This document shows positions 9,159 to 58,161 of a stretch of 64,000 bases of DNA, piece after piece. Below the pieces are notes generated by a model. The model saw only the letters and a program-made list of their open reading frames with translations. It had not been told where the DNA came from and did not search any database. This DNA comes from a virus. Within the stretch, counting starts at the first letter, position 1, and the number at the start of each line of letters is the position of its first letter. The stretch is from IMG/VR virus record IMGVR_UViG_3300021960_000018; one strand, written 5' to 3'. The position numbers and the translations under genes were made by a program.

Positions 9159-9871
9159 TGTGAATATTCCTCAAATATCTCTACTATATCCTGTAAGTTT
9201 GGTAGATTTGCATCATTATATATCGGCTTCTCAACAGTAGAAATTACGTGCTCTATTTTCATGGCAGCATAGTGGTCGGCAAACTTAGATCCATCACCAT
9301 GTAGTTTCCTGGGACCACTGACATGAGCAGCAGGAATGCCATAAGCATGTGCAGCGATAATACCATGAAGGCTAGAAGATATAATTCTTTTGCAAGAGGT
9401 GATTTGTTTTGCGACCTCCAAAGGTTCGCTGTTAACCACATCGATAATATAATGGTCAGGATACTTAGACTTAAAATAGCTAAAGTGTTCATAATGTGGG
9501 ACTAATCCTATCTCATGTTGCTTTTTACTTTCGGGGCAGAACATAGGCAATAACAATGCCGGATCCCCGTACACGTCCGGGCACGCGCCCCCGTGCGCGA
9601 GTACGTTCGAGCGGGTGTGCGGCCCGCGAACGAATCTCCATGTTGCAGTTGGTTCTGCATGTTCTCCTTTACGAATCATACCAGATCCGAGCACAGTCGA
9701 ACCTGGTGTAGCCAATCTTGCGATTGAACCAATCACATACATTGTACCATATTCATGGACGTTTGTATGCTGAAATTTTATGTTAAAATGATCTAGTAGA
9801 TTACCCGTTAGTACATCACCAAAGTTATTTGGGATATCTCCCCAGTAGACCCGATTCACCGGTGTCTCCAT
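9155..9871 (-). CDS. Polysaccharide pyruvyl transferase (ExoV-like)
   Basis: NFGD, VRGPHT, GDPALL, SSSLHGIIAAHAYGIP. Confidence 0.85.
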   Translation of the reverse strand: METPVNRVYWGDIPNNFGDVLTGNLLDHFNIKFQHTNVHEYGTMYVIGSIARLATPGSTVLGSGMIRKGEHAEPTATWRFVRGPHTRSNVLAHGGACPDVYGDPALLLPMFCPESKKQHEIGLVPHYEHFSYFKSKYPDHYIIDVVNSEPLEVAKQITSCKRIISSSLHGIIAAHAYGIPAAHVSGPRKLHGDGSKFADHYAAMKIEHVISTVEKPIYNDANLPNLQDIVEIFEEYSQ

Positions 9872-10635
9872 TGATTAACTGGTTTGTTGACGATATCGTA
9901 GATCATATTATCATTTAAGATATCTCGGGGTCTAGTTTGTACGTGTACGAACACAGTATTATCTACTCGGTTATCAATTACATCTCTCGGCGTTTTATCT
10001 CCGGTATAGTGTACTTGGGAATTCCACTTGATATCCATTTCTGTAAATTCAGTTTTACCGGAATGAACCATAACACCAAGATAGTTTTGATCCAGGTGAT
10101 AGAATCGATTCATCCCCTGCATAGATCTAACATATTCGTCATACTCTGGCCATGATCTGGCTGCCTCTCTTGCTTCTTTGGTATAATAAACTACCCCAGA
10201 ATTAAATACAAGAGGTCTGCGATTTGAATCTAGTGGTACTGTAATATCGAAAGTGTGTTTAGCTCTAATAGCCCACATTTTATCTGCTGCAGTATTAATG
10301 GGCCCGTTCGATTCGAATCTTAATTGCGGTTGCAACGGTTCCCGCACCATTCCAATACCTTTTACATTCTCTTCAAAAATATTACAATCTGCTAAAACAG
10401 TTGGGAAAATATCCATATCGAGGAACAGAACATCATCATAATCTTCAAATGCAGGATCGAAGATCGGGCGGAGACAATCCATATAATTCGAATTTAATCC
10501 ATGTGAAAATGGTTTATTCAGATCGACCCTGTGTTCAACCCCTATATAATTTGCATAAGTTCCAATTTGCTTTGCACTACACATAGCATAATATGGAACT
10601 GTTCCATTCCAGAATTGATAAATTAAATTACGCAT
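9856..10635 (-). CDS. GT-A glycosyltransferase
   Basis: LFLDMD, FNSGV, DQNYL, FVH. Confidence 0.7.
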   Translation of the reverse strand: MRNLIYQFWNGTVPYYAMCSAKQIGTYANYIGVEHRVDLNKPFSHGLNSNYMDCLRPIFDPAFEDYDDVLFLDMDIFPTVLADCNIFEENVKGIGMVREPLQPQLRFESNGPINTAADKMWAIRAKHTFDITVPLDSNRRPLVFNSGVVYYTKEAREAARSWPEYDEYVRSMQGMNRFYHLDQNYLGVMVHSGKTEFTEMDIKWNSQVHYTGDKTPRDVIDNRVDNTVFVHVQTRPRDILNDNMIYDIVNKPVNQWRHR

Positions 10636-11297
10636 TGCTCCACCAATTTAGCAAGTACTTCTTTCTTAGTTGTCTTTGGCCCTTGAAGAGTCCATTTGGG
10701 TCTAATATGAATAATATAAGCCCGTGACATGTCATCGAAGCTATTCATATCCCATTCGTTACCCTTTCCAATACCATTAAAATATGTATCTTCAGTTTCG
10801 GGAAGACCGGATTTCCAAGCTAGATAATGCATAATGCTTTCATCTTTTAGCTGTCTGTCTAGCTGACCAAGTATTTGATCTGTAGGGATAGCAGATCTAA
10901 GTCTGATACGAGTTTCTCTATCAAATTTATATATTGCTCCACCCCAGTAAGGTGCGGTGTGATTTGCTAAAAGCCCATTCCTGGTAGCAATCTTTTCTCT
11001 TAATTCGGATTGAATTTTAGTATGTCTACCCATACCCTTTGCTTCAAAGATATTTGATTTATTCTCTCGATGGGTAAACATATCACAGTCTAGCATTACA
11101 ACATTATCGTATTCGTCATACTCTGGCATTAAAAAGCAAAGCTTTTGGGATTGGTCACTTAGCCATCCCTTCCAAGGTTTACCGGTAATAAGCTTATGTT
11201 CAACCCCAATGGATTTAGCATAGGCAGAAATATTATCAACGGAATCTTTTGCGACCCCTGCCAATTTTCCATTATAGTGTTGAAGAATAATATTCAT
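10623..11297 (-). CDS. GT-A glycosyltransferase, paralog of its neighbours
   Basis: YDNVVMLDCD, DE, IIH. Confidence 0.65.
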   Translation of the reverse strand: MNIILQHYNGKLAGVAKDSVDNISAYAKSIGVEHKLITGKPWKGWLSDQSQKLCFLMPEYDEYDNVVMLDCDMFTHRENKSNIFEAKGMGRHTKIQSELREKIATRNGLLANHTAPYWGGAIYKFDRETRIRLRSAIPTDQILGQLDRQLKDESIMHYLAWKSGLPETEDTYFNGIGKGNEWDMNSFDDMSRAYIIHIRPKWTLQGPKTTKKEVLAKLVEQCVI

Positions 11298-12007: not shown

Positions 12008-12666
12008 CCCATATCATAATCCAAATAATATAAATCCCTGATAATTTGTTTATTTCCTTCTGATAAATCTTCTTCTGAAAATGGACCATTCCATTTTACT
12101 CCAGATTTATTAAGCGATTCATACCCATCTAGATTTTTTTCTTTAAGAAATGAATTTAATTCACTAAGTTTATAAGCAAAAATATTTTTTCTTAAAGTAT
12201 ATTTGCAGCCAAAAAATAATGTCTGCGGCCAGAACACGTCCATTTCATATACCAAGTTATAATAGAGAACAAATTCTAACCAATCGTTAATTTTTGGCGG
12301 GGGTACCCAATCTGGCTGAATAGCCAAAGAACGATGGATCGTCATATTACTGGCCGAAATAAATCTTTTTATCGGATCTCTATAAAAAATATATATTGGA
12401 TTCTTCGATAAATCTAATGGCCATGTTTCTAAGTTACGATTAAAAGGTTTTGAAAATGATTCTTCCCATGATATATCTTTTATTTGCGGATTTATTTTTT
12501 TCAATTCTTCCCACTGTATATTTGCAATTGTAGTAGAGGCATTCTTGGGACAATTTTTTATAGAAAACCCATTGAAGGGAAGGATGTTGGATGCAAACCG
12601 ATCAATCTTAGTTTTATTAATTCCTAAAGATTTATATCTTATGTGTTCAGGCAATTCCGGTATCAT
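11986..12666 (-). CDS. Sulfotransferase family 2 protein
   Basis: PAPS-binding motifs PKNASTT and RDPIKRFIS; C-terminal Y..DY. Confidence 0.75.
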   Translation of the reverse strand: MIPELPEHIRYKSLGINKTKIDRFASNILPFNGFSIKNCPKNASTTIANIQWEELKKINPQIKDISWEESFSKPFNRNLETWPLDLSKNPIYIFYRDPIKRFISASNMTIHRSLAIQPDWVPPPKINDWLEFVLYYNLVYEMDVFWPQTLFFGCKYTLRKNIFAYKLSELNSFLKEKNLDGYESLNKSGVKWNGPFSEEDLSEGNKQIIRDLYYLDYDMGWREWMS

Positions 12667-13443
12667 TTATACCTCCCTCATTAGATCCTCTACGTTTTCT
12701 CCACGTTCAGGCAATTTGTCTTTAAGGAAGAAGTGTACAAAATGACAATGCTTTATCTTTGTATTTGCAGTATACAAGCCATTCCATTTCCAATGGAGAT
12801 GCTGGATATTCATCTTTTCTTTGCGGATCCACCAGTTTAATAGTGTTTGGTCCGTTGACCACTTCCATGCACCAACGCCATCAATAAACGGTTTAAACTC
12901 CGGGCGTTCTAAGAACTGCTTCGGAGTCTGGCCTTTTAGATATTTTGTAATGGATTTGTTCATGACCATTACGCCCATGTTCATGAACTCGTATCCAAGA
13001 TGATTTGGACGAAAGTCGACTTGAGGATGTAAGGTTCGATACTGCATCGATGAATAGTTTAAGATCTTATTCTTATACTGTTCGTTGATGGGCATTTCCC
13101 GTTCAACTACGGCAGCGAAGTCAGTATCGCCATTAAGATGGTCAAAAATATTAGGACTACCGGGACGAACCCAAATATCCGAATCAATGATAGCAATCTG
13201 GTCGTACCGATCAAAGAACTCGAATGCGTTTTCTTTTTCGTAGATCGGGAGCGGGAGCGGGCGGGCCTGACATTCAGCCGATCTGTTCGATGTAAACGGA
13301 TCAGGCCGAATCCAGAGTTTTGGGGTGATTTGTTTAACGTAGTCGATACCGTTTTCTTTGGCATATAACTCTACCGTATTAGTGCAATAATTATATAGTT
13401 TAGATTGCGGCCCTACAGCCACCTGGTAGATCAACCGTTTCAT
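12667..13443 (-). CDS. GT-A glycosyltransferase
   Basis: IIDSD, NMGVM, DQTLLN, FVHFF. Confidence 0.75.
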   Translation of the reverse strand: MKRLIYQVAVGPQSKLYNYCTNTVELYAKENGIDYVKQITPKLWIRPDPFTSNRSAECQARPLPLPIYEKENAFEFFDRYDQIAIIDSDIWVRPGSPNIFDHLNGDTDFAAVVEREMPINEQYKNKILNYSSMQYRTLHPQVDFRPNHLGYEFMNMGVMVMNKSITKYLKGQTPKQFLERPEFKPFIDGVGAWKWSTDQTLLNWWIRKEKMNIQHLHWKWNGLYTANTKIKHCHFVHFFLKDKLPERGENVEDLMREV

Positions 13444-14809: not shown

Positions 14810-15496
14810 TTAGTACCCCATCATTTCTTTGGTCATAATATAGTCTCGGACGAACTCACTCCTGACAATGTCCGCCCACCCAAATTGAACCACTCGGAAC
14901 GCCCGCATGGTTTCAATAATAGAAAGGAACTTAATAATCCCTTCCTTCTCATCTTCATATTTGAAATCTGTTTGCTTATGATCCCCAGCAAAGATAATCC
15001 GGCAGTCCTCACCCACACGGGTAATTACCGAATCAAGCTCATGGAAGTTCATATTTTGCATCTCGTCTATTACTAGAATAGTTTGATCGAAGGTTGCGCC
15101 ACGAATGTAAGAAGTTGTTTCGAATTCAATTTTTCGAGTAGCAACTAACTTACCCCAAGCGCCTTCATATCCAAAAATCTCATCGCAAAGATTTTTATAT
15201 GGTAGTTTATAGGGTTCTTCTTTTTCATTCTTATTACCAGGAAGGAATCCAGCATCGCGAGTAGGAACCATTGATCGAATGATCATTACCTTACGATATA
15301 GGTCTGGATTCTCAGTCAATGCTTTTAGTGCAAAGTATAGTGCCATAAAGGTCTTACCTGTACCAGCACTACCAGCCATTACAAGATTGTGTCCATTCTC
15401 CCAGGCATCAAAAGCCTTTTGTTGATTTTCAGTATAGGGTTCAACTGGTTCAATTTCATCTGCCAGAATCAGATGTGTGGAATTAGTTCTTTTCAT
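14810..15496 (-). CDS. phoH: PhoH-like ATPase
   Basis: GSAGTGKT, GFLPG, IRGATF, DEMQN, GDHKQTD, DIVRS. Confidence 0.93.
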   Translation of the reverse strand: MKRTNSTHLILADEIEPVEPYTENQQKAFDAWENGHNLVMAGSAGTGKTFMALYFALKALTENPDLYRKVMIIRSMVPTRDAGFLPGNKNEKEEPYKLPYKNLCDEIFGYEGAWGKLVATRKIEFETTSYIRGATFDQTILVIDEMQNMNFHELDSVITRVGEDCRIIFAGDHKQTDFKYEDEKEGIIKFLSIIETMRAFRVVQFGWADIVRSEFVRDYIMTKEMMGY

Positions 15497-18847: not shown

Positions 18848-19270
18848 TTAGTTCTCCTTCAAGCTTTGTACGTGTGATCTGTGCACACGACAGTTGATAA
18901 TACCATTATAATAGGATTCATCTAACAATACATTTCTATCGAATTGTTCTTTTGCCTCGAGATAACCCATCTCACCTTTCGATCTGCAGAGATATAGTAT
19001 CTCACGAGTGAAATTGGATTCCCCATGTTCGAGTAATAGTTGCTTGACCAAGTCACTGGAACCATAGTACTTTTGCCAATCTGATGGCACGACGCTTCTT
19101 CGTTTTTTGGTCTTACCTTTAAGAGGGGGGAGTGTTTTCTTTGACCAGAATGTCTTTTTTCCAACGTACTTTTTACCGTTGGATTTATCCGTGATAACAT
19201 AGACAAATCCTACCCATTGCTTTAGTTGTTCTTCATCTGGTTCATACGGTTTATTATTATATAGCCACAT
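18848..19270 (-). CDS. GIY-YIG family protein (conserved nrdA-adjacent type)
   Basis: GFVYVIT...KYVGKK, YYGSS, FTREIL, YYNGII. Confidence 0.8.
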   Translation of the reverse strand: MWLYNNKPYEPDEEQLKQWVGFVYVITDKSNGKKYVGKKTFWSKKTLPPLKGKTKKRRSVVPSDWQKYYGSSDLVKQLLLEHGESNFTREILYLCRSKGEMGYLEAKEQFDRNVLLDESYYNGIINCRVHRSHVQSLKEN

Positions 19271-19462: not shown

Positions 19463-21118
19463 TTAAGCTTCACATGACGCACAGGTTAGAATGTCTCGCA
19501 CAAGCTCTTGCGCGGGATTAGAACTACGTTGGTAATAGAATGTTTTGATCCCACTCTTCCATCCTTCAATAAGAAGCTTATTGATATCTTTTGCAGGGGC
19601 ATCAGGTGGAATCATTAGATTAAGAGAAATGGCTTGGTCAACATATCTCTGACGACCAGCGTTTTGCTGTACAATTGTCATTGGGCTGATCTCAGAGAAT
19701 GTACGAAATACTTCACGCTCGTGCTGTGTAAGGAATTCTAGATGCTGTACAGATCCTTTACGCATTAGAATATCCCGCCAAGTATCTTCGTCATTCTTAC
19801 CATGTGATTCTAGTACTTTTACTAGATAAGGGTTTTTATAAGTGAAAGAACCCTTAGCCAAGTCTTTGACGAAGTAATTAGAAGCAAGAGGCTCAATACT
19901 TGGAGATACTTGTCCCAGAATAAACGACGAAGAAGTTGTAGGCGCGATTGCAGTAACTGTAAGATTCCGTAGACCATAACCTTTCATACCCTCTGGTTCA
20001 CCATGGAACCTTGCTAGTTCTTGAGATGCCTGAATAGAATGATCCAGAATGAATTTACTAATTTGTGTTCCAAGCATTTGGGCTTCGAATGATTCGAATG
20101 CGATTGACTTGGATTGTAGATAGGAATGCCAACCAAGTTGACCGAGGCCAAGTGCACGCCAGTGCTTAGCAAAGTTGTGTGCCGTTTCCATGAACTTCAC
20201 ACCTTTGGTCTTCTTAATATATTCTTCCATGACAGCGTCCAGAAAGTAAATCATAGTCTCTACGGCATCCGTATCCTTCCACTCGTCATATGTTACAAGA
20301 TTCATAGAGGAAAGATTGCAAACAAAAGTCCACTCATCAGACGACGGCAATGCGATCTCTGAGCATAGGTTAGACGCATAGATTGGGATATTCTTATCTT
20401 TTAGAACTTGTGGTTTATTGTTATTCACGGTATCAGAGAAGAACAAATAGGGGTAACCGGTCTCTTTACGTTTACGTAGAACCTTGGCCCAAGTCTCCCG
20501 CTTATGTTGGTCTCCATCAATCATCTCCTGCATCCAGTCGTCAGGAATAGTAACACCAAGGGAGATATTTTGAATATGATTGCCTGGCTCTCTGATTTCT
20601 AGAAACTCATCGATATCCCGATTATCAATATTAATGTAAGCAGCAAAAGCTCCCCGACGGACGCTCCCCTGTGAAATAACGTCAGTAGCAGTATCATATA
20701 GACGAAGATAGTGAACAGGCCCATCGGCTTTACCCCCAGTTTTAATCTTAGATCCACGAGCTCGAATGTCCCCAAAATAACCAGACGTACCAGCACCAAG
20801 TTTAGTCTGTACACCTACCTCGGCTTGCTTCTGGAGGATCTGTTCAATACTATCACCGACATATACACCATTGCAAGAAATAGGAAGACCTCTATCAACC
20901 CCAAAGTTGGACCAAACTGGTGAAGATAGACTATAGAAACCACGACTCATATAGTCGTAGAACTTATCAGAGAATCCTGGAACATGTAGGATTTTCTCTG
21001 CAGCATCAGCAATCTCGCGTACGCGCTCTTCCGCGATCACGCCCTCGCGTAGGTACCCGCGCGAGAGGAATAGACGTGACTCTTCATTTAGCCATTCAAA
21101 ACTCATAGTATTCTCCAT
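19463..21118 (-). CDS. nrdA: Class I ribonucleotide reductase alpha subunit (short, no ATP cone)
   Basis: PISC, SNLCSEI, VCNLSS, APTTSSS, TFYYQR, C-terminal CASC. Confidence 0.95.
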   Translation of the reverse strand: MENTMSFEWLNEESRLFLSRGYLREGVIAEERVREIADAAEKILHVPGFSDKFYDYMSRGFYSLSSPVWSNFGVDRGLPISCNGVYVGDSIEQILQKQAEVGVQTKLGAGTSGYFGDIRARGSKIKTGGKADGPVHYLRLYDTATDVISQGSVRRGAFAAYINIDNRDIDEFLEIREPGNHIQNISLGVTIPDDWMQEMIDGDQHKRETWAKVLRKRKETGYPYLFFSDTVNNNKPQVLKDKNIPIYASNLCSEIALPSSDEWTFVCNLSSMNLVTYDEWKDTDAVETMIYFLDAVMEEYIKKTKGVKFMETAHNFAKHWRALGLGQLGWHSYLQSKSIAFESFEAQMLGTQISKFILDHSIQASQELARFHGEPEGMKGYGLRNLTVTAIAPTTSSSFILGQVSPSIEPLASNYFVKDLAKGSFTYKNPYLVKVLESHGKNDEDTWRDILMRKGSVQHLEFLTQHEREVFRTFSEISPMTIVQQNAGRQRYVDQAISLNLMIPPDAPAKDINKLLIEGWKSGIKTFYYQRSSNPAQELVRDILTCASCEA

Positions 21119-22086
21119 TAAAATAAATCGTCGGCAGAGATGCCTTTGCCGCGGGCATAGTCAACTGGACGTCCTTGGAAGAAGTCGACCATGTTTGTTC
21201 CATATAGACCTTCATCAAACCAAGTTGTTTCTTTTACTAGCGTATTATCATAGGTTACCCCATGATCGAAGCCAATGGCTTCTAGAGATTCGACCATACG
21301 CTTTTTAATAAATTCAATTAAAATCTCACTAGAAAGACCCTTCTGCTCGTATCCATCCATAATCCAACGAATAACATTTGATTCGTATGCAATAGCTGCC
21401 TGAATTTCTTCTGCGATACGTGATTGTAATTCTTCATCGAATAGCTCTGGATATTCTTCGCGCATCGTGTTAATGAGCTTAATACCACACTGTGCGTGCA
21501 ACATTTCCTCGTTACGAGTGTACTTTACTTGCTGTGCGGTATCTTTAAGAATAGCTTTGTTTTTATTCATGTGCAAAATAATATAGAATTGCGAGAAGAG
21601 TGAAACGTTCTCCACAAATAAAGTAAAGAGAGTGATAGCATAGATGTATTGCTTACGGTCGTCTTTATATACCTTTTTCAAATATTTACGAAGGTATTGG
21701 ACACGGCCAGCAATAATAGGATTCTCTAGATTCTTTTCGAAAACGTCTGTAATACCAAGAACGTCTAGCAGTTTCTCATATGCCATATTATGGATAACCT
21801 CGGAGTTGCCCATAGCATATCCGAGGTCCCTAATAGATGGATGGGGTAGGTTGTCACCAAGATTCGCCCAGAATGTTTTCACAGCAACTTCGATCTGGCC
21901 AATTGCAGACAAAGCCCGGACAAGAACTTCACGCTCTTGTGTTGTCATTTCTGTTTTGAATTGAGAATAATCTGAAGAGAAATTAAATTCTTCCGGGGTC
22001 CAGAATCCGCTCCAAATAGCATCGATGAAATCTTTTGTCCAAGGGTAGTGATCAGGCTTTCGGGCAACTTGTTCTTCGAATAGCAT
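21118..22086 (-). CDS. nrdB: Class I ribonucleotide reductase beta subunit
   Basis: FWTPEE, EVIHNMAY, ENVSLFSQF, EEMLH, DFFQGRPVDY. Confidence 0.95.
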   Translation of the reverse strand: MLFEEQVARKPDHYPWTKDFIDAIWSGFWTPEEFNFSSDYSQFKTEMTTQEREVLVRALSAIGQIEVAVKTFWANLGDNLPHPSIRDLGYAMGNSEVIHNMAYEKLLDVLGITDVFEKNLENPIIAGRVQYLRKYLKKVYKDDRKQYIYAITLFTLFVENVSLFSQFYIILHMNKNKAILKDTAQQVKYTRNEEMLHAQCGIKLINTMREEYPELFDEELQSRIAEEIQAAIAYESNVIRWIMDGYEQKGLSSEILIEFIKKRMVESLEAIGFDHGVTYDNTLVKETTWFDEGLYGTNMVDFFQGRPVDYARGKGISADDLF

Positions 22087-27331: not shown

Positions 27332-28395
27332 TATTTTAACCTCTGTTTAAAAGATTCATATGCCACACCTTTTTTGGTATGTTTCTTTTCAATGTCTTGG
27401 CGTTTCTTTAACGCTTTATTTGTTTCGGGTGAACCAGCTACATCAGCAAAATCTTTAGCAGCTTTCATACGATCAGCTGCATCGACGTCACCATCAAAGT
27501 CACGGTCAACATATTGTTTCCCATGTTTGATTTGATGTTTAAGCGAAAGCTTAGTATCCAATCTGTGGTTGCTTTCTAATACTTCTACATCATTTAACCA
27601 TTTACGTAGTTTTTTACCTTCGGCAGTTTCAAGTACTAAATAGTTAGAACCAAGAGTCATAACTGTTGCTACTTCGTCTGTCGATTTAACAACTACTTGA
27701 TCACCTTCGTTAAAAAGAGTACCACGTACATATTCTTCACGAGTTTCAGACACCGGCATAAGTTCAATGTGTCGTTTAAAATTCTTTTCTTCCTTCAGTC
27801 CCATACCTTTGCGCACAGTATTAAAGAGTGCCTTTGCATCCGCATTAGACACTCTTTTTGGAAGACCTTGGGAGAAGGAAGCAAAATCATTATCAGATGC
27901 AAACCCGCGCATCTTAGAAGCTGACATACCCTCGACACCTTCAGCATCTGGATCACGTTCACCAGCAGAAATTACAGTGATCTTTTTAAAATTATAATGA
28001 CCGTGTCGACCATCAACACCGTTATACTTGTTAAGAAGGGTCTGAAACTCAGCGACACGATCTGACCCCACTACCATTGCGATATTTTTATAACCCTCAT
28101 TATAGAGAATCGTAGCAATATCCATAACATTCTTTACGTTACGATTTAGCATAACCGAACGAGCATGCTTCGGAAACATCTTACGTACAAATTTAATTTT
28201 AGAACCATAATCTAAAGGGTTCTTTTTGGGATCAGAAGATTGCGATAAAAAAGCTCTATAAGGATTAGATCCAGATTTAGAAGCCAAAACATCTAGCAAC
28301 TTTCCATGACCAATGGTAGGAGGGTTCATCCTACCAAACGTAAAAAATACCGTCTTTTCTTCTTCAACTAGAAAGTTACGGAATGAATTAATCAT
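27331..28395 (-). CDS. HIGH-motif cytidyltransferase-like nucleotidyltransferase
   Basis: FGRMNPPTIGHGKL, VVGSDR, SAGERDPD, MSASKMR; N-terminus SFRNFLVEE. Confidence 0.85.
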   Translation of the reverse strand: MINSFRNFLVEEEKTVFFTFGRMNPPTIGHGKLLDVLASKSGSNPYRAFLSQSSDPKKNPLDYGSKIKFVRKMFPKHARSVMLNRNVKNVMDIATILYNEGYKNIAMVVGSDRVAEFQTLLNKYNGVDGRHGHYNFKKITVISAGERDPDAEGVEGMSASKMRGFASDNDFASFSQGLPKRVSNADAKALFNTVRKGMGLKEEKNFKRHIELMPVSETREEYVRGTLFNEGDQVVVKSTDEVATVMTLGSNYLVLETAEGKKLRKWLNDVEVLESNHRLDTKLSLKHQIKHGKQYVDRDFDGDVDAADRMKAAKDFADVAGSPETNKALKKRQDIEKKHTKKGVAYESFKQRLK

Positions 28396-28853
28396 TACTT
28401 CTGGTCATCCTGTGGTTTCTTATTACGACGTTCCATTTCGGCTCTACGTAATTGCGGTAGCATTTTGCGAGCGATCTGATCGATCTTGCTCTTCATCTTA
28501 TCTACCCTTTTCTCAATAGCCTCTCTACGGGCGAAATCTAGTTCACCTTTAGGAACGCCCTTTGTAATTCTTTTAACCAGGAAGTTTCTCGCGGCCTTGC
28601 GCGCACGTTTCTTTAACCGGTCCATTGTGGCAACGCGCATTTTAGCACGTTCCTGGCCGATCTTGATTTTACCCTTCATTCTGCGGAATTGTACAGCTTT
28701 ACGACGTCTCTGCGTCATTGTTAAAGCTTCATTGACTATATGATAACCTTTGTTATCACAATGCTCGCAACCTTTACCCTTACACTTTGGGCATTCTACT
28801 TTTTTCTCGTATAGGTCTACGAATTGTTTAAAGGATACTTTATTATTGTCCAT
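28395..28853 (-). CDS. Basic protein with DnaJ-like Zn motif (probable internal protein)
   Basis: SFKQF..LYE; CPKCKGKGCEHC; EALTMTQRRRKA. Confidence 0.6.
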   Translation of the reverse strand: MDNNKVSFKQFVDLYEKKVECPKCKGKGCEHCDNKGYHIVNEALTMTQRRRKAVQFRRMKGKIKIGQERAKMRVATMDRLKKRARKAARNFLVKRITKGVPKGELDFARREAIEKRVDKMKSKIDQIARKMLPQLRRAEMERRNKKPQDDQK

Positions 28854-34501: not shown

Positions 34502-34547
34502 TTTGATAGTAGTAATATAAGGTATTACGAATCGTTTGTAAACCCCC
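34502..34547 (-). promoter_or_regulatory. Early promoter cassette
   Basis: GGGGGTTTACA-N17-TATATTACTACTATCAA. Confidence 0.8.
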
Positions 34548-34900
34548 TAATTCAAATAATTACGACATTTTTTCAGTTTTTTCGAAATAAATTCTGGATC
34601 ATTGATCTGTCGGTTTAGTGGGGAAGGGTGAGGAAGCACGAAATGTTCTACATTAAGCTGAGAAAGGAATTTAGAAACCAGTCCACCTAAGGCTATTACT
34701 TTCTCGTGCCCGCGTACGCACGAGAGCACGTACTCGCGGTCGATCGCGCGCTTGTCCCAGTAAGGGTCATGGGATAGATTAGTAAATGCTACAATACCCA
34801 CCCCGAGGTCATCGATCCAGTCTTGTAAACGATACCAAGCACATCCCTTTCGGTACTGTGCCTTGGTAGGATTTAATCCGACAATTAAGGTCATCCCCAA
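34547..34900 (-). CDS. Minimal uracil-DNA-glycosylase-fold protein
   Basis: IVGLNP, FTNL, VIALG, LPHPSPLN. Confidence 0.7.
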   Translation of the reverse strand: MGMTLIVGLNPTKAQYRKGCAWYRLQDWIDDLGVGIVAFTNLSHDPYWDKRAIDREYVLSCVRGHEKVIALGGLVSKFLSQLNVEHFVLPHPSPLNRQINDPEFISKKLKKCRNYLN

Positions 34901-35648: not shown

Positions 35649-36209
35649 TCACTTTTTTAGTTGTTCGAATCCCCAGTTTTTCTCTCTGCATTGCCAACAC
35701 TCCCCACACTCTTCACCAGATGTTTTTCTGATGCAACTTCTCGTCTGTGATAGATCTATAGATAGTTGGTTAGCAAGATCGATAATGTGGTACTTGTATA
35801 GGTGTAAGAACGGGGTCTGCAATCTGGGAGTAGCAATGTTCCAGGGTCGACCTGGCTTGTCAGATGTGGCAAACTCTGGGAAGTATTCAAGGGGAGGAGT
35901 ATGGTTGATACCATAATATAGATTATCAATATCATAGTTTTTAAGAATATAATCTATAGCCGTGGGCACTCTTGCCCAATGTTCAGTAGTAAGTTCTGCG
36001 ATTTCGATTACGGGTTTGTTGGTAATAGCCTTTACTCTAGCGCTACTATCAAACCCGTCAGCTCTTGCAATATTAAAGATTATGGGATTATCAAGTAAAT
36101 GATACATGACAAAACTATCAATCCCGCCAGACATAATAATACCGGGCTTTTTATCGGTTGGGATATTGACTACCCTTTGATCCCATTCAGGTCCGCATAT
36201 ATATTGCAT
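35649..36209 (-). CDS. QueC-like PP-loop ATPase
   Basis: MSGGIDS, PFLHLYK..I, TRSC, CGECWQCRE; start MQYICG with SD GGAGG. Confidence 0.7.
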   Translation of the reverse strand: MQYICGPEWDQRVVNIPTDKKPGIIMSGGIDSFVMYHLLDNPIIFNIARADGFDSSARVKAITNKPVIEIAELTTEHWARVPTAIDYILKNYDIDNLYYGINHTPPLEYFPEFATSDKPGRPWNIATPRLQTPFLHLYKYHIIDLANQLSIDLSQTRSCIRKTSGEECGECWQCREKNWGFEQLKK

Positions 36210-36240
36210 AACAATCCTCCAAATCATAAGGTATATATCT

Positions 36241-37017
36241 ATGTATGACACTGTTGTTTCAGGATGTAGTTTTACTGCAGCTAATTTCAAGAGTCACGCA
36301 GCGCCTGATGTTGATACTAGCTGGCCAAAATGGCCTGAGTTATTAGGCAATGAAATGGGTTGGAGTGTATTAAATGTTGCCAAAAGCGGATACTCAAACG
36401 AAAGGATATGCGAAGAGGCCATAGAGGCTATAAAGGAAAATAGTAATATAAAAAGATGTATCATTGCTGCATCTGGATGGACTAGGTTTTCTCTTTTCGG
36501 ATATAATTTTATGTGGGATTTTATAATGCAAAAGGAAACCGGACTAGAGGTAATGAAATTGTGGGGTGATGAAGATCCAGAAACGAATCCTATCTATTTA
36601 AAACAAACTCGAGATTTAAAAGAAATAGTACGATTGGTGGAAGTTAAAGAAGAAAAAGCATATCGCCACAGTCTTAAAAAACAACTATACGCATTGGATT
36701 ATTTAAGATTAGTTTGTAAGCAGCGCAATATAGAATTATATTTCTTCCAGATGTTACCAATAGTTAATCATCTTTTTATTGATAGATATAATATAAAACA
36801 GCAGGTCCTGAATAGTTATGAATATAAAACTATGAAAAGGGAATGTAAATTTATTAAACGATACGATTCATTATATGAAAATAATATTATATTAATGAGT
36901 TTTTCAGATAAGAAATTATCTGATAAAGATTTAAGAGTTTCTGAATACGATCAGCATCCTAATAAATTATGTCATGAACTCATTGCACTATGGTTAAAGG
37001 AAGAAATAAATGGTTAA
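36241..37017 (+). CDS. SGNH-like protein
   Basis: GCSFT, WPELLG, SGYSNE, DQHPN..CH. Confidence 0.65.
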   Translation: MYDTVVSGCSFTAANFKSHAAPDVDTSWPKWPELLGNEMGWSVLNVAKSGYSNERICEEAIEAIKENSNIKRCIIAASGWTRFSLFGYNFMWDFIMQKETGLEVMKLWGDEDPETNPIYLKQTRDLKEIVRLVEVKEEKAYRHSLKKQLYALDYLRLVCKQRNIELYFFQMLPIVNHLFIDRYNIKQQVLNSYEYKTMKRECKFIKRYDSLYENNIILMSFSDKKLSDKDLRVSEYDQHPNKLCHELIALWLKEEING

Positions 37018-44666: not shown

Positions 44667-45273
44667 GCCACCCTCCGGTATCCCATTTATGAAGTCTTAC
44701 ACGTCTCCAGTTGTCGTGATGATTTCTGTGAAAGCCTTCACCTGCTACAAAGAAGTTTAACCACCATTTATTAGATCCACCTTCATCGGAATGTCCATAA
44801 GTATTTAAAAGGCCAAAGCCCACCTTTGCAAATACAAATGGAATGGCCGCATACGCTAACCAAAAATATGGGCTGATCAAAAAACTAATAACATTGTGAG
44901 CCAGTAATAATTTTTTATGGTGGTTATGAAAGAAAACTAAACGTGGATTGCTATACAGATCCCTTGCATATTTCATGGGTATCTTGGGAACGTCCCAGGT
45001 TGTAGTCAATACCTTCCATCTACCAATGTATTGCCAAGCGTGGGGATCTTTTTCTGTATCACTATGCTGATGATGCATTCTGTGACTGGCTATCCACCCA
45101 ATAGGGGATCTAATATAAGCGACAGATAACATGAATAGGCCCATAACCTCAAACCACACAGGCACTTTAAACTGTCGGTGACAGTAATGACGATGTAATA
45201 AAATTGACGCTCCAAAATGAGATATAATCTGACTCCAGATTAATCCAATAATAATGATAAAAACTAATGTCAT
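44638..45273 (-). CDS. Membrane fatty-acid desaturase (delta-9/DesC-like)
   Basis: His boxes HRHYCH, HRMHH, GEGFHRNHH; SDTEKDPH. Confidence 0.9.
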   Translation of the reverse strand: MTLVFIIIIGLIWSQIISHFGASILLHRHYCHRQFKVPVWFEVMGLFMLSVAYIRSPIGWIASHRMHHQHSDTEKDPHAWQYIGRWKVLTTTWDVPKIPMKYARDLYSNPRLVFFHNHHKKLLLAHNVISFLISPYFWLAYAAIPFVFAKVGFGLLNTYGHSDEGGSNKWWLNFFVAGEGFHRNHHDNWRRVRLHKWDTGGWLAEKLFVKK

Positions 45274-45926
45274 CTGCCTGCTAGTGGGTTATCCAATGCC
45301 TCTTGTAATCTCATTTCAAGATCAGTTCTAAGGGTTCTCATATTAGTATCTATACGCTCCTCTGTATCCCGCATTGTATCACGTACGTCCTTTTCTGATT
45401 CGCGGATAGTCCCTTCGACTTCCCGAATAGAAGCAGTTACATCTTTTTCCTGCTGGTTCATGTCCGCGCGCACGCCCTCGAGAGTCGCTTCAATTGAGAC
45501 CTGTGTTGCTTTAATCCTTGCCTCTGCATCTTCTAAAGATTGACCTACGCGGATTTCTAGTTCTCGCATATCTCTTTCAACTCTATCGGTCGTCTGTTCA
45601 ATGCGTAGAATATCGTCTCTTAGGCCGTTTTTAATATCGCGCGTGTACGCGATCGCTTCTTCTAGTTTAATCTCTATTTCATTATTACGAGCTTCAATAG
45701 CATCAGTATCAATATTGGCAATGATTTCTTTCATCCCCATATAGTCATTATAGACTTGGAATGCACCATAAAGTCCGCCAATAATAGAACTGATAATAGC
45801 AAAGGCTGCACCAATTGTAGTCGGCGTTACAGTAATACCAAATACTTTCATTTTGGTATTTTTAAGATTTTCTATTTCTTCTTCGAACGCTTCTGTTAGT
45901 TCGCCTAAGTCTTTATCTTCTGCCAT
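45270..45926 (-). CDS. Membrane-anchored coiled-coil/apolipoprotein-like repeat protein
   Basis: One TM, then 11-residue amphipathic repeats; ends ALDNPLA. Confidence 0.7.
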   Translation of the reverse strand: MAEDKDLGELTEAFEEEIENLKNTKMKVFGITVTPTTIGAAFAIISSIIGGLYGAFQVYNDYMGMKEIIANIDTDAIEARNNEIEIKLEEAIAYTRDIKNGLRDDILRIEQTTDRVERDMRELEIRVGQSLEDAEARIKATQVSIEATLEGVRADMNQQEKDVTASIREVEGTIRESEKDVRDTMRDTEERIDTNMRTLRTDLEMRLQEALDNPLAGR

Positions 45927-49392: not shown

Positions 49393-49420
49393 ATTAGACT
49401 TCCTTTATGTTTGAGAAATT

Positions 49421-49740
49421 GGGCCCGTTCTGTTTCTAGGTGGAACCCATACCCACTTAGCAAAAAGCAGTTCTTAGGCTGCTAAAGCCAGAGGAGCAAA
49501 GTTATCGTTTGCATTTAGTTTAATTGATCTATACGCGATCATCCGGTAAACTCCACTCAATCTTCACACCTGTCGATCCTATTTCGACCCCATCATAAGC
49601 ACACCGGCAGTTAAACATGCATTCTTTTAACTAATCCGCCCTAAACTAATAATTGATTAGTACCGATGTGCTTATGGTGGAGTCGCTGGGTACCGCCCCC
49701 AGGTCCAGAATGTGTCCACGTTGCTTCAACGTTTACAAAC
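49421..49740 (-). ncRNA. ssrA: Two-piece (circularly permuted) tmRNA, alphaproteobacterial type; tag ANDNFAPLALAA
   Basis: Acceptor piece ends GACTCCACCA (CCA at 49675-49677); hairpin intervening segment; coding piece starts GGGGTCGAAATAGGATCGAC at 49591; tag ORF 49512-49474. Confidence 0.92.
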
Positions 49741-49749
49741 ATACTTATA

Positions 49750-50328
49750 TCATATGTTGTCTAGGTTGATGATCCCCATTGGTGCAAATTCTTGATGATG
49801 TGACATTTCGGTAACCTTAGGTGCATTCTTACCTAATAGATTATCGAACAACTGTTTAACACCAAGAGTAAGATCATCTACTGAACCGTTATTATCGATA
49901 ATAAAATCAGCCATCCACGGTTCAATACTGTTGCTTTCTTTGCTTTCTTCTTTAACATGCTCTGAGCGATCGACCCAGATAGCAATGTCGAATACACCAG
50001 CATTCTTCATAAAGGTGAATTCACGCTTGTTACGAAGACCACAGTAAATATCAGACTCTTTAAAGATTTCGCGGCCAAGTCGCGTTGGGTCTTCGGCACA
50101 ATAATTTGCTATGAGAGTATACCATCTTTTACGGTGCTTATGTCTATCTTTAAAGCATTCTTCTACAGTCTTATAACCAAATTCATGCTTAAGGACCGGG
50201 AAGACGACATGTTCAGCACAGAATTCACTGGACGAACGGAAAGACATACCGTAGAACATAGCTAAAAGCTCTGCTACGGTGTCTTTACCGTGACGACCAT
50301 GACCAACCAATACAATTTTAGGATTCAT
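49750..50328 (-). CDS. Deoxynucleoside monophosphate kinase-like protein
   Basis: GHGRHGKDTVA, R...E, DFIIDNNGS. Confidence 0.7.
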   Translation of the reverse strand: MNPKIVLVGHGRHGKDTVAELLAMFYGMSFRSSSEFCAEHVVFPVLKHEFGYKTVEECFKDRHKHRKRWYTLIANYCAEDPTRLGREIFKESDIYCGLRNKREFTFMKNAGVFDIAIWVDRSEHVKEESKESNSIEPWMADFIIDNNGSVDDLTLGVKQLFDNLLGKNAPKVTEMSHHQEFAPMGIINLDNI

Positions 50329-50917: not shown

Positions 50918-51127
50918 TTATGCTAATTTTTTTATGCCCAGACACCAATTTTCAGCAGCATCTTCTACATATCGCATAGACTTACCGGGGAACTCCTCAG
51001 TGAAGAACCTACGTCCCTCATTGTCAAAATATTTGATATAAAACATTTCTTCTTTATAATTTACATGGATCTCACAATGTCCTAGAGATGTGTTGTTATT
51101 ATAGAAAGTCGAAATCTTTTTACCCAT
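50918..51127 (-). CDS. Conserved hypothetical protein
   Basis: KSMRYVEDAAENW motif. Confidence 0.65.
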   Translation of the reverse strand: MGKKISTFYNNNTSLGHCEIHVNYKEEMFYIKYFDNEGRRFFTEEFPGKSMRYVEDAAENWCLGIKKLA

Positions 51128-51782
51128 TTTGAATAAACTCCTCTATCATTGGGAAGCATCGCGCGATCGCGTACGCGCACTCTCTCGCGAGCTCGATGTG
51201 CTCTTTTTGTGTACCATTTCCAGACCTAAGTTCAATGTAATGTACCCAAGAGCGAAGGGTACCATTAACATAGAGACGGCTAACTGTGTTCCCCTCTGGT
51301 AGCACAGCGCGCGCCTGTTCCTTGGCAATCCCGGCCTGAATTGCCCATTTGTATGCCATTCGTGCTTCATGAATTATCTGTTCCTGTTTAATAATCCAAG
51401 CTTTTTTGATTTGTTCATCATCAGTTTCTATAGAATTCTGACGATTCTTTTCATCTTGCAGTCGTGCTTCTCTGACAACAAATTGTAGATCTTCGGTGGG
51501 GTCTGCATATCGCTGTGAGAATTCTTGGAAAGAAAAAGACCTATGCCGCAAAAACTGTCTAGCAATATCACGAGTGGTTTCAACCTCAAGTGTGGCAGAA
51601 GCCATTTCTAGTGGTGACCAATGTTTATGTTTGATCAGATAACGAATAAGCTTTTCGCCAGTTTCTGTATTTAGCTGATTCGAGGGATTTGATACACGAG
51701 CACAATAGGCAATAAGATCTTTTGCATTATCAATGCCGATCATATTAACCGGTTGGGTATAACCAATTAGTCTAGCCTTCAC
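51120..51782 (-). CDS. thyX: Flavin-dependent thymidylate synthase
   Basis: HWSPLE, RQFLRHRSFSFQEFSQRY, EQARAVLP. Confidence 0.96.
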   Translation of the reverse strand: MKARLIGYTQPVNMIGIDNAKDLIAYCARVSNPSNQLNTETGEKLIRYLIKHKHWSPLEMASATLEVETTRDIARQFLRHRSFSFQEFSQRYADPTEDLQFVVREARLQDEKNRQNSIETDDEQIKKAWIIKQEQIIHEARMAYKWAIQAGIAKEQARAVLPEGNTVSRLYVNGTLRSWVHYIELRSGNGTQKEHIELARECAYAIARCFPMIEEFIQNG

Positions 51783-55165: not shown

Positions 55166-55624
55166 ATGTACTATCTATATCTTAAGACCCATAATGTAAC
55201 CGGATTAAAGTATCTCGGTAAAACCAATTCAAATCCTTTTAAATATAAAGGTTCGGGTATTGTTTGGTCTCGACATTTACAAAAACATGGTAATGATGTT
55301 ACTACTACTGTTTTAAAAGAATGTCAAACCAATGAAGAAATACGTAGATGGGGCATTTATTATTCTGATAAATGGAATATCGTAGAATCTTCTGAATATG
55401 CAAATCTATGTCGGGAAGAAGGCCAGGGTGGTCATACTTATGATAAAAGAGGAAAATCCCGACCAAATGGATGTAAATTCCACAGAAGAGGTAGAAAACC
55501 TATTATAATAGACGATAAAGAATATATTAGTTCCCATTATGCCAGTAGCATATTAGACATACCCCAGTCAACCATCTCTTACAGAGTTAAGTCTGACTAT
55601 TGGCCAAATTACTCATTTGCGTAA
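55166..55624 (+). mobile_element. Free-standing GIY-YIG homing endonuclease (Seg-like)
   Basis: YYLYLKTHNVTGLKYLGKT, YKGSG, YANL..E.G.GG, C-terminal HTH-like domain; opposite strand to its neighbours. Confidence 0.8.
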
Positions 55625-56454
55625 GTGACATTTTGTTGTCTTTCCCTTTCATCTAAATCATATTGGGCTCTATACTCATTATTAATTCTAACACATTCTT
55701 CGACTAATGTAAACCTATCACTGTAATTAATTAGCGCATTTGTATCCTTTGGAAAACATGCTCCGCCATATCCTTGCTTACCGTCGAAGCCGGGAACTTT
55801 AGTATGTGAAGAACCAATACGAGGATCTGATGCAATGGCTTTCATAATGGTAGAATAATTGGCTCCAATATCTTGTGCAGCATCATATAGTTGATTAAAA
55901 AATGTAATCTTAGTAGCAAGGAATGCGTTAATCCCATATTTAACTAAAGAAGCTTCTGCCATACTCATAAAATGAAATGGTGCTGGATCGCATAGACTAT
56001 AATTTTCATATAGATCTTTTAATGCCCAGCATTCATCTACATCACCACCAATAATATGGAATTTAGGACGAACGAAATCTGCCTTGGCAAATCCCTCTGT
56101 AAGAAACTCAGGATTATATACAACCCCGCCAACGTCCCAATGTCGGATAATATCAGGAGTTACAGTTGATTTGATTACAATAATAGTGTTTATCAGCATA
56201 CTCTTAGTAAGGCGTTTCATTACCTTATTAAAGATAGTTGCGTCGATAGTGCCATCTTCCCCAAATGGTGTTGGTACACATACAAAAATAAAATGGCAGC
56301 TGCCGAGGATGCCAAGATTATTTTCTACTGTAGTATTATAGATTGGATCGATGATAACCTTTTCAACACGGTCATTGGTAAAGCCATAGTCAACAGCTTT
56401 ACCGACAAATCCGTGCCCAATAATAGCAATTCTTTTCAATTGATAAACTCCCAA
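55609..56454 (-). CDS. UDP-glucose/GDP-mannose 6-dehydrogenase family
   Basis: GHGFVG, VCVPTP, IKSTV, YNPEFL, GYGGACFPKD. Confidence 0.9.
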   Translation of the reverse strand: MGVYQLKRIAIIGHGFVGKAVDYGFTNDRVEKVIIDPIYNTTVENNLGILGSCHFIFVCVPTPFGEDGTIDATIFNKVMKRLTKSMLINTIIVIKSTVTPDIIRHWDVGGVVYNPEFLTEGFAKADFVRPKFHIIGGDVDECWALKDLYENYSLCDPAPFHFMSMAEASLVKYGINAFLATKITFFNQLYDAAQDIGANYSTIMKAIASDPRIGSSHTKVPGFDGKQGYGGACFPKDTNALINYSDRFTLVEECVRINNEYRAQYDLDERERQQNVTYANE

Positions 56455-56873
56455 TCAATCTGGGCTTCTTTGAACATTTCTAGAGTCTGTTCGACAGATT
56501 CCCGCCAACGTTCGTTGAAAGGATCCCCGTGCATAACAACACGATCAATACCTACTTGGATAATAGCCTTAGCGCATTCGCTGCAGCAGGGTAAGCCGTA
56601 GACGTACATGGTAGAACCTTTTAGGGATACACCATTGTAAGTAGCATTATAGATGCAGTTTGCTTCAGCGTGAACGATATATTTATACTTAATCTGACGA
56701 TCTGCATAACGTTCATTCATATCCAAAATGTGTCGTGGGAAGCCGTTATATCCTGTAGATAGTACTTCACCCTTCCCGCCTACCGCAATTGCACCGATTT
56801 TGCTGGAAGGATCTTTCGACCAAGTAGAAACTTCCTTGGCCAGGTTAATATAGCGGACGTCCCATTTATCCAT
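56436..56873 (-). CDS. cd: dCMP deaminase
   Basis: SKDPS, TGYNG, HAEAN, PCCSEC; start MDKWD. Confidence 0.9.
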   Translation of the reverse strand: MDKWDVRYINLAKEVSTWSKDPSSKIGAIAVGGKGEVLSTGYNGFPRHILDMNERYADRQIKYKYIVHAEANCIYNATYNGVSLKGSTMYVYGLPCCSECAKAIIQVGIDRVVMHGDPFNERWRESVEQTLEMFKEAQIDWEFIN

Positions 56874-58161
56874 AAAGTTCACTCCAGATTTTTTCATTGG
56901 TTTGGCGTTGTTGCATAGGATCTGTGCGGATTGCATCAGTCTTAAGAGGATGTTTGTCCCGCGAAAGAATCTTTTGTGGGACAAGATCTTTGAAAGCTTC
57001 TTTAAGAACTTTCTTTTCGCCATTACGTTGCTCGTACGGCGTGCGTAGCGCGTGCGTGACGACCTTAGGCGACAGGAATGGAGCACGAAGTTCAATAGTG
57101 CTATGCATCATCGTACGGTCCAATTTAGGTAGATGATAATAAGGCAATTCACACCAAATATCCGAAGCTTGGCTATCATACTCTTTTGCACGACGATATC
57201 CACCGAATAGTTCGTCAGCACCATCCCCGGTTAGGACTGCATGGAAACCGAGGTCATGTAGTTTTCCTGCCATAGCAATTTGTGGTTTGGTAGAACCAAG
57301 ATCAACTGGAGACTGATGTATAGCAACGCTATCCATGTCACTAACGCCGTGAAGTTGTACTTCGACCATATCTTTTGCAACCAATTTAGCATAGTCTTCT
57401 TCTCCATTATCGACGTGAATGGCTGTAACATCACGACCGAGGATATCAGTAATAATCTTATAAATGATGGTAGAATCTAGGCCGCCAGATAGTAGAATAG
57501 ACAGTTCACGCTGACCGCCAAGGCGTCGTTCGACTGATTCGATTAGGTCAGTGCGCAGGTCAGTGCACGAGGTCATTTTCCAATTCCAGTACTTGTGCAC
57601 TTGCCCTTTATGAATAAGGCATCCTGGAGGAAGTTGTTTAATTTCATTCCAGGGAGTACCACCAGTTGGATCATAGCCCCATTTCATAGTATTTGAATGG
57701 AACAGTTCGTTACGGGTGACAGGACCAAATTCTTTTAGTACATCTGGTTCAGAAGCCATAGCATCTACGTCAGTACGGTAATACAAAGGCTTAATACTAA
57801 GATGATCGGTAACACCAAACAGTGCGCCGTCCATAACAGTTACGTATGTCCAGAAGCCATCGAATCGATTAAACTCACGAATACCTTTGATCCAAAAGGT
57901 TTGCCATGCACAATCGATATCATTATCGAAGCCAAAATCTTCGTAGTTAAAGATTTCACCGACAAATAGTGAGTTACTACCAGGACGAGGCTGAATAGCG
58001 ACTTCAGGATCTAGATTAACAAATGGTAGACTTACGTGGCCGAGCTGAATAGGACCATTACGTTCATAGCCTTTATAACCCGGTAGTCCTCGATAAGCAA
58101 TTTTATCCAGTAATGATTCTACATCAACATCTGTATTGATTGCTGCAATGAAACCACACAT
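56866..58161 (-). CDS. Asparagine-synthetase-B-like amidotransferase
   Basis: N-terminal MCG, GEIFN, KPLYY, LSGGLDS, TGDGADELFGGY, ELRAPFL. Confidence 0.9.
   Translation of the reverse strand: MCGFIAAINTDVDVESLLDKIAYRGLPGYKGYERNGPIQLGHVSLPFVNLDPEVAIQPRPGSNSLFVGEIFNYEDFGFDNDIDCAWQTFWIKGIREFNRFDGFWTYVTVMDGALFGVTDHLSIKPLYYRTDVDAMASEPDVLKEFGPVTRNELFHSNTMKWGYDPTGGTPWNEIKQLPPGCLIHKGQVHKYWNWKMTSCTDLRTDLIESVERRLGGQRELSILLSGGLDSTIIYKIITDILGRDVTAIHVDNGEEDYAKLVAKDMVEVQLHGVSDMDSVAIHQSPVDLGSTKPQIAMAGKLHDLGFHAVLTGDGADELFGGYRRAKEYDSQASDIWCELPYYHLPKLDRTMMHSTIELRAPFLSPKVVTHALRTPYEQRNGEKKVLKEAFKDLVPQKILSRDKHPLKTDAIRTDPMQQRQTNEKIWSELYG

Follow-up and report, generated by a model that had tools for sequence, protein, structure and literature searches.

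The stretch of DNA analyzed here, hereafter the window, comprises 64,000 nucleotides of IMG/VR record IMGVR_UViG_3300021960_000018. It originates from a marine T4-like myophage with a genome of about 157 kb, identical proteins being found on contigs of 157,294 and 157,297 bp, and all window statistics refer to these 64 kb out of the ~157-kb genome. Its G+C content is 39%, and 0.33 at third codon positions (GC3); genome-wide, the CpG observed/expected ratio is 0.90, a slight depletion. Nearly all genes of the window lie on the minus strand. They include those for NrdA and NrdB, ThyX, a thymidylate-synthase-like (TS-like) protein, UvsX, a DnaB-type helicase, RNase H, PhoH and glutaredoxin, as well as many glycan-modifying enzymes. 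Within several of these genes are short islands in which the codons turn to G/C-ending, CpG-forming synonyms, a feature first pointed out in a prediction made from the letters of the window. We find that these islands are real, CpG-saturated, in-place synonymous recodings, which are preserved as DNA sequence and at times passed from one lineage to another.

Islands in the window

An unbiased scan (30-nt windows with at least 21 G+C and at least 5 CpG) returned 11 segments, one of which is a tRNA gene. Within genes, 11 islands were counted against 3.06 ± 1.65 (maximum 8) in 500 within-gene synonymous shuffles, a conservative null, so that the excess over codon-shuffled expectation is genuine. 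The eight main islands of the original prediction lie where it had placed them, with a G+C content of 0.66 to 0.80 and 5 to 16 CpG each; inside them the peptides are normal and the codons overwhelmingly G/C-ending, including TAC, AAC, GAC, CAC, ATC and GAG. The scan also agreed with it that the AT-rich block at 35.6-45.2 kb is devoid of islands. As for the weaker islands proposed, those at 4038-4056 and 13247-13268 pass the scan and those at 14871-14908 and 62741-62756 fail it. Defined by GC3 only, islands were not significantly in excess (14 versus 9.4 ± 2.8), which indicates that the signal is specifically one of CpG plus GC3. The islands are the following:

9554..9640, minus strand: largest island, in the polysaccharide pyruvyl-transferase-like gene 9155-9871, codons 78-106; 16 of 19 possible CpG, 26 of 29 codons G/C-ending (9559-9632: G+C 0.76, 16 CpG)
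21014..21070, minus strand: nrdA island, ORF 19463-21118, codons 17-35; 12 CpG, 100% of the coding maximum (21014-21068: G+C 0.71, 12 CpG)
21126..21158, minus strand: second-tier nrdB island, final 12 nrdB codons, on the opposite side of the nrdB-nrdA junction from the nrdA island
28588..28607, minus strand: short island in the unknown gene 28395-28853, peptide RARKAAR; 5 of 7 possible CpG (G+C 0.80, 5 CpG)
34703..34774, minus strand: island in the uracil-DNA glycosylase (UDG)-like gene 34547-34900, codons 43-66; 12 CpG, 100% of the maximum over codons 49-66 (34703-34752: G+C 0.70, 12 CpG)
45450..45493, minus strand: island in the unknown gene 45270-45926, codons 147-159, ~180 nt from the gene end (45462-45488: G+C 0.78, 6 CpG)
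45637..45656, minus strand: second island in gene 45270-45926, codons 91-96, peptide AIAYTR; 5 of 5 possible CpG (G+C 0.70, 6 CpG)
51147..51203, minus strand: thyX island, codons 194-212 of 220, 30-80 nt before the stop; 10 of 12 possible CpG (51151-51203: G+C 0.66, 10 CpG)
57026..57078, minus strand: AsnB island, in the asparagine-synthase-like gene 56866-58161, codons 362-377; 9 of 10 possible CpG (57030-57075: G+C 0.67, 9 CpG)
58343..58385, minus strand: second-tier TS-like island, in the TS-like gene 58161-58940; 5 CpG, G+C 0.60
13236..13269, minus strand: weaker island, peptide QARPLPLPIY, in the unknown gene 12667-13443; not retained in contig L082
4024..4067, minus strand: weaker island, in a Gly/Ala-rich stretch of gene 3877-4335, its G+C owed largely to the Gly and Ala codons themselves

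The nrdA island lies close to the start of its gene, 37-93 nt past the working ATG, and the pyruvyl-transferase island is retained in the 97%-identical contig L081.

CpG saturation and codon choice

CpG was itself one of the criteria by which the islands were picked, so that there is some ascertainment bias. Together the eight have 75 of the 84 CpG possible for their peptides (89%, by dynamic programming over synonymous spellings), while 17-codon windows across the genome reach on average 24% of their maximum (99.9th percentile, 90%). Three islands, those of nrdA, the UDG-like gene and 45637, stand at 100%. An absolute maximum over 18-19 codons is no threshold effect, and random respelling in which all codons end in G or C yields fewer CpG than observed (nrdA, P = 0.003; UDG-like, P = 0.007).

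Codon choice inside the islands favors NCG over NCC (GCG 18 and GCC 4, CCG 7 and CCC 0, TCG 4 and TCC plus AGC 0, ACG 4 and ACC 1), while NCC codons are equal to or commoner than NCG outside. Leucine is written CTC seven times versus CTG once. The favored codons GCG, TCG, ACG, CGC and CTC are the rarest of the genome, and that the CpG-bearing ones are among them may be why CpG is saturated. Purines and pyrimidines alternate at 313 of 516 island steps, versus 268 ± 7 in an all-G/C-ending control, an increase that follows from the CpG richness; strict alternation extends over ~14 nt at most (45638-45651), and no pure CG repeat is longer than 6 nt.

Recoding in place and conservation among relatives

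The islands align codon for codon with the homologous genes of relatives, with zero indels, and an inserted mobile element of the GC-cluster type was rejected on these grounds. Yeast mitochondrial GC clusters and the Rickettsia RPE are likewise short G+C-rich islands in A+T-rich genomes, sometimes within genes, but they are insertions that add sequence, unlike the islands of the window.

Islands are a property of few lineages: there are ~2 per 10 kb in the window, L081 and L082, versus 0 to 0.6 in 80 thyX-anchored T4-like contigs of similar G+C content. The thyX island is present in L085 and L086 (94% amino acid identity), not in L087 (86%) or L088, and it is lacking in ~75 of 79 thyX sequences (65-78% identity), the few other thyX islands being placed differently. 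Every silent site of the AsnB island is identical in L087 and L186 (88% amino acid identity; ~85% overall identity), and the island is not found in L088 (84%) or more distant relatives. The UDG-like island occurs in all 12 metagenome relatives (76-88% amino acid identity). Among nine distinct sequences of that gene (75-83% nucleotide identity), third-position identity peaks in the island, at 0.88 versus a gene mean of 0.64, and several first positions vary there (TAC/CAC, TCG/GCG, TGC/GGC). The nrdA island is missing from 88 of 92 distinct low-GC3 nrdA sequences. Relatives also bear islands of their own elsewhere in the same core genes, as does L091 in nrdB, nrdA and PhoH.

Polarization with two outgroups left only 19 island sites, at which ancestrally A/T silent sites had changed to G/C in 54% of cases versus 24% outside the islands (P = 0.02), and ancestrally G/C sites had changed to A/T in 0 of 6 versus 24% outside. 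In relatives that share islands, G/C-ending codons are better kept inside than outside them (P = 0.02-0.03).

Discordant sharing of the nrdA island

The nrdA island is found in L081, L082, L092, L093, L173 and L172, and not in L083, L090 and L091. This distribution does not follow the gene. L172 nrdA has 73% nucleotide identity with the window, being as distant as the island-less L083 and L091, yet it carries nearly the same island; in a quick protein tree with the first 45 NrdA residues masked, L172 falls outside the 95%-supported clade shared by the window group and two lineages without the island, those of L083 and L090. When L172 and L082 are compared over 531 sliding windows, the island ranks first in similarity (0.91 versus 0.73 ± 0.07), whereas the same window ranks 479th against L083 and 506th against L091. 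L172 matches L082 through nrdB (83-98%) to about +100 of nrdA, and then at 65-73%. As this similarity ends at the downstream edge of the island, the island arrived with a mosaic block. Phylogenetic discordance, the mark of preferential spread by conversion, was found for the nrdA island only.

A separate observation concerns the nrdA allele as a whole. NrdA of L082 is 94% identical to that of the window, but its neighbors on either side, NrdB (86%) and SegE (78%), show no greater similarity than in more distant phages, so that the allele has moved between lineages as a block.

Spacing, motifs and structure

A regular spacing, originally proposed as a recurrence every ~6-11 kb with several intervals of about 5.7-6 kb, did not hold up: a Rayleigh test over periods of 3-12 kb gave P = 0.35, and the coefficient of variation (CV) of the intervals P = 0.08, reaching P = 0.025 only for a post hoc set of six islands. 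There is thus no basis for periodic packaging, ejection or nucleoid sites. Nor are the recurrent words special, since palindromic 6-mers (P = 0.40) and 8-mers (P = 0.14) are no more frequent than in dinucleotide-shuffled islands; a shared motif or palindrome was rejected, words of the CGCGTACGCG type being accounted for by dinucleotide content. An iterated palindrome of the HIP1 type was sought in the window and not found, GCGATCGC occurring twice and GCGTACGC three times. A G-then-C order along the strand, looked for by eye, was not consistent among islands: two run C-then-G, thyX the opposite way, and the UDG-like island shows neither. The 10-mer CGAGGGCGTG is common to the nrdA and 45450 islands, and a search across the islands for a common binding-protein motif found none. 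Conserved RNA structure was also rejected (z-scores of ten islands from -1.6 to +2.5 against dinucleotide shuffles), and an Rfam scan returned only tRNAs and a transfer-messenger RNA (tmRNA), nothing at the islands. Of the proposed signal on DNA rather than protein, what stands is that silent sites are fixed, that CpG is maximal and that the islands are lineage-specific; periodic sites and a common binding motif are not supported.

Endonuclease genes near the islands

Two genes of the window resemble endonucleases or their DNA-binding domains:

18848..19270, minus strand: SegE-type GIY-YIG endonuclease-like gene, 140 amino acids (PF19835, 4.7e-38), 1.7 kb downstream of the nrdA island
55166..55624, plus strand: gene whose product has a DNA-binding domain of the I-TevI type (PF20987; 5.7e-5, weaker than the curated cut-off); the AsnB island is 1.4 kb away, the TS-like island 2.7 kb; 80% homologue in L085 and L086

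A protein made up solely of a SegE-type GIY-YIG domain (138-149 amino acids, 66-99% identity) follows nrdA in every relative sampled (L081-L083, L090, L091, L172 and L173). As its position is fixed and it has no DNA-binding tail, the gene would seem to be domesticated rather than mobile.

As judged by homology, two islands, those of nrdA and of the TS-like gene, lie at endonuclease-associated sites. In L103 and L105, the nrdB-nrdA junction is the exact position of a GIY-YIG/NUMOD3 gene. The same junction in the window is free of endonuclease genes; the nrdA island lies 40-95 nt downstream of it, with the second-tier nrdB island on the other flank. In T4, mobE is located in the nrdA/nrdB spacer and its product nicks the first 189 nt of the downstream gene (T2 nrdB); T2 and T4 differ at the nicked region by nucleotide polymorphisms, and co-conversion extends up to 2 kb (PMC2790892). 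More generally, the cleavage sites of free-standing endonucleases are hundreds to thousands of bp away from the genes that encode the enzymes (PMC2988022). The endonuclease gene of L103 and L105 is likewise in the spacer of the two reductase genes, and the nrdA patch of the window is in the first 100 nt of the downstream one.

The second case concerns td of T4, the gene that contains the homing site of I-TevI (Edgell, Stanger and Belfort 2004, as cited in PMC2790892). The TS-like gene of the window is divergent and may be no true thymidylate synthase, and no intron interrupts it in any sampled relative, a difference from T4 td. Recoding at its homologue of the I-TevI site was predicted first, and then matched by the island at 58343..58385, which is only second-tier: the island covers exactly HMRSCDVVRHLHND, 14 codons homologous to T4 td QRSVDVFLGLPFN and raised in both G/C and CpG. 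For a 40-nt site placed at random, overlap with an island of this kind has P = 0.027. We take QRSVDVFLGLPFN to be the T4 I-TevI site, and it maps to td genes in 371 phage records. I-TevI recognizes a site of ~37 bp, and island lengths of 20-60 bp match the size of a recognition site.

The search for nucleases covered ~80 ORFs of the window as well as inserts in relatives, using Pfam and PHROG. The inserts near the thyX and UDG-like genes of relatives were considered as endonucleases and rejected; they are a 2-oxoglutarate (2OG)-oxygenase, a 225-amino-acid ORF and a Cas4-like exonuclease, the ORF showing an oxygenase-like HxN...H pattern as read from the alignment. Elsewhere, in L088 (5435-8134) and L089 (1201-3656), uvsX is split after residue 210 by a 243-amino-acid NUMOD3 endonuclease gene and small ORFs, and L090 carries an endonuclease gene beside the 3' end of PhoH.

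Counted post hoc, four of the six strongest islands have, no more than 220 nt away, a junction whose gene content differs among relatives (nrdB-nrdA and the 3' ends of thyX, the UDG-like gene and gene 45270). Single mosaic cases, which are anecdotal, are suggestive for nrdA (L172 versus L082), AsnB (L087) and thyX (L085).

Discussion

We tentatively read the islands as scars of conflict with site-specific endonucleases and the gene conversion that these trigger, an account that we favor over the others and regard as quite possible. Homing endonucleases from this phage or from co-infecting relatives, together with double-strand-break repair, would drive the recoding. A nuclease would recognize the common A/T-ending spelling of a conserved gene segment, and an allele rewritten with codons seldom used in the population would escape cutting, its silent positions and a few tolerant amino acid positions being pushed to the rarest G/C-ending, CpG-forming codons. 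Such an allele would be kept because reversion would restore sensitivity, and it would be copied into relatives during repair. The expected outcome would be patches about as long as a recognition site, restricted to particular lineages, with conserved silent sites and at times in conflict with the gene tree. We infer both that the unrecoded spelling is what the nuclease cuts and that one cause accounts for all islands. In the intronless homing of T-even phages, donor and recipient alleles likewise differ by clustered nucleotide polymorphisms, and flanking sequence is carried along in conversion tracts, in agreement with the discordant sharing seen for the nrdA island; unlike in those cases, most islands of the window have no nuclease nearby, and we found no description of the T-even alleles as CpG-saturated or rarest-codon recodings.

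Several observations weigh against a conflict with nucleases. No homing-type nuclease was found, in the window or in sampled relatives, near the thyX, UDG-like, pyruvyl-transferase, 45270 and 28395 islands. The SegE-like gene occurs in island-bearing and island-less relatives alike, and the link between SegE allele and island is weak, the SegE of L172 being closest to that of L082 (0.79 versus 0.66-0.74 for the others). The 85-bp pyruvyl-transferase island exceeds a typical recognition site and lies within a variable glycan-gene cluster. The split point of UvsX and the 3' end of PhoH, both endonuclease-associated, are only mildly raised in G/C. Simple escape recoding would not require the CpG maximum, and isoleucine in the islands is written ATC, not ATA, its rarest codon. 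Finally, mosaic breakpoints were not enriched at islands in an unbiased change-point scan run against the window, a scan blind to breakpoints between two relatives: of nine breakpoints, most of them at gene boundaries, only one lay within 50 nt of an island (P = 0.27-0.58).

Selection could instead act on CpG density as such. The islands would then be cis-acting DNA elements without a motif, kept by purifying selection for properties such as extreme duplex stability, Z-DNA potential, or protein exclusion or binding, an explanation that we find rather doubtful and that amounts to the original prediction stripped of its periodicity. We are just as doubtful of its form in which the islands would be hardened segments, whose maximal duplex stability, guanine-filled minor groove and Z-DNA potential would block or steer nucleases or strand exchange generally, with CpG density maintained independently of any single homing endonuclease. 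That CpG is at or near the coding maximum with no motif requirement, that alternation exceeds the all-G/C-ending control, that silent sites of the UDG-like and nrdA islands are more conserved than some amino acid positions there, and that the islands are somewhat over-dispersed along the window (the CV result above) are all in keeping with it. However, the same genes lack the island in close relatives (thyX in L087, AsnB in L088, nrdA in L083, L090 and L091), which makes an essential element unlikely, and the ~80 other T4-like contigs of similar G+C content have almost none. The lack of periodicity and the shortness of the strictly alternating runs also speak against it, and we know of no phage function that needs CpG-dense elements. 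A localized, GC/CpG-biased repair of heteroduplexes, a phage form of biased gene conversion with no function or role in immunity, would correct T:G mismatches to C:G where diverged co-infecting genomes pair most often; we hold this to be unlikely. It would account for the direction of change from A/T to G/C without reversal in islands, for the G/C-increasing amino acid changes at tolerant positions (TAC/CAC, TCG/GCG, TGC/GGC, GAG to CGC), for the islands being local maxima of identity and for their post hoc proximity to gene-content junctions, and the phage encodes a UDG-superfamily protein. GC-biased gene conversion in eukaryotes and bacteria (PMC12290510, PMC11879095) similarly leaves clustered A/T to G/C substitutions, with some amino acid changes, in tracts that are lineage-specific, turning over and independent of motifs, but the islands are far shorter and sharper, and CpG-specific rather than simply G+C-rich. 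Moreover, T4-type phages recombine everywhere and CpG is nevertheless slightly depleted genome-wide, so that very sharp hot spots would be needed; the breakpoint scan gave the islands no link to recombination; the changes GCT to GCG and GCC to GCG are transversions, which T:G repair does not explain; and no report of biased gene conversion in phages was found in the searchable literature.

Two further explanations are much less probable. Clusters of special codons, slow because rare or else preferred by the host, might act in translation, for folding or accuracy. The island codons are the rarest of the phage, its seven tRNAs read A-ending codons or ATG, so that a G+C-richer host may favor G/C-ending ones, and conserved motifs, FLSRGYL and RGP.T...GDP among them, coincide with some of the islands. 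A translational role is nonetheless very unlikely, as the same peptides use ordinary codons in close relatives, codon choice tracks CpG, even across codon boundaries, rather than rarity or typical high-GC usage, exact nucleotides and not merely the class of codon are conserved, and the clusters do not keep their position across homologues, as the nrdA and thyX counts above illustrate. The other explanation, short recombinant patches from high-GC orthologues of the host or of GC-rich phages, is the least credible. In its favor, nrdA of L115 and L116 has a GC3 of 0.92-0.94 and spells the FLSRGYL motif similarly. The nrdA island peptide, FLSRGYLREGV.AEERVRE, however, lies within the variation of its clade, FLSRGYL[EQKR][ED]G[VM]SAE[ED]R[IV].E, and beyond the invariant motif it is unlike those two high-GC relatives; being native to the clade, it excludes high-GC donors as its source. 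Amino acid differences from relatives are not concentrated in the islands, so that the matching amino acid changes expected of such patches, which the original prediction had named as evidence against itself, were looked for and not found. The preference for CTC over CTG and for GCG far above GCC is also unlike typical high-GC bacteria.

If the patches do mark the action of site-specific nucleases, they would provide a sequence-only map of homing-endonuclease targets and of sites of gene-conversion conflict, which would serve uncultured phages, where crosses are impossible. The patches also show that strong, very local and non-translational constraint is possible on the silent sites of phage genes, and it bears on codon-usage host prediction, on dating by synonymous divergence (dS) and on recombination analyses of viral metagenomes. 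Saturation in CpG, which in three islands reaches the very limit that the peptide sets, makes a sharper signature than an overall increase in G+C would, and one easier to test; no description of such CpG-saturated islands was found in the searchable literature.

Other features of the window

Seven tRNA genes are clustered at 1461-3867 on the minus strand (Met-CAT, Leu-TAG, Thr-TGT, Pro-TGG, Ser-TGA, Leu-TAA and Arg-TCT). Every elongator tRNA among them reads A-ending codons, which suggests that the host is G+C-richer than the phage. A permuted, two-piece tmRNA at 49418-49790 on the minus strand (Rfam RF01849, 125 bits; RF04321, 116 bits; tag ANDNFAPLALAA) is of the alphaproteobacterial type and points to an alphaproteobacterial host.

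Besides six plus-strand ORFs without Pfam match, the AT-rich block at 35.6-45.2 kb (G+C 0.32-0.36) contains genes for a methyltransferase and TauD and genes of Asp/Asn-hydroxylase-like and fatty-acid-desaturase-like type. The homology to L085 breaks off at 45277, at the end of gene 45270-45926, so that the block is a variable cassette region. At its edge, adjoining the UDG-like gene, a minus-strand ORF of 213 amino acids (35649-36290) matches only the C-terminal 55 residues of QueC (7-cyano-7-deazaguanine synthase).

The genes for ThyX, the divergent TS-like protein, the asparagine-synthase-like amidotransferase and a dCMP-deaminase homologue are close together on the minus strand (56436-58940 and 51120-51782), and as a set they are compatible with hypermodification of pyrimidines in the phage DNA.

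Two short words are over-represented. The 10-mer GTAAACCCCC (gene strand GGGGGTTTAC) occurs 10 times versus 0.08 expected in the window, at 2427, 16858, 18608, 30359 (minus strand), 32575, 32898, 34538, 35625, 50898 and 61994. Most copies occupy intergenic spacers directly upstream of minus-strand genes, with conserved flanks (TTTGTAAACCCCCTA), and in L082 the SegE gene is bordered by copies too; the 10-mer probably marks promoters or cassette boundaries. The palindrome GCTGCAGC occurs eight times versus 0.8 expected (1235, 4268, 24863, 26183, 46694, 46721, 52829 and 56580), and as most copies read Ala-Ala(-Ala) in GCT/GCA codons, it is probably a by-product of codon usage.

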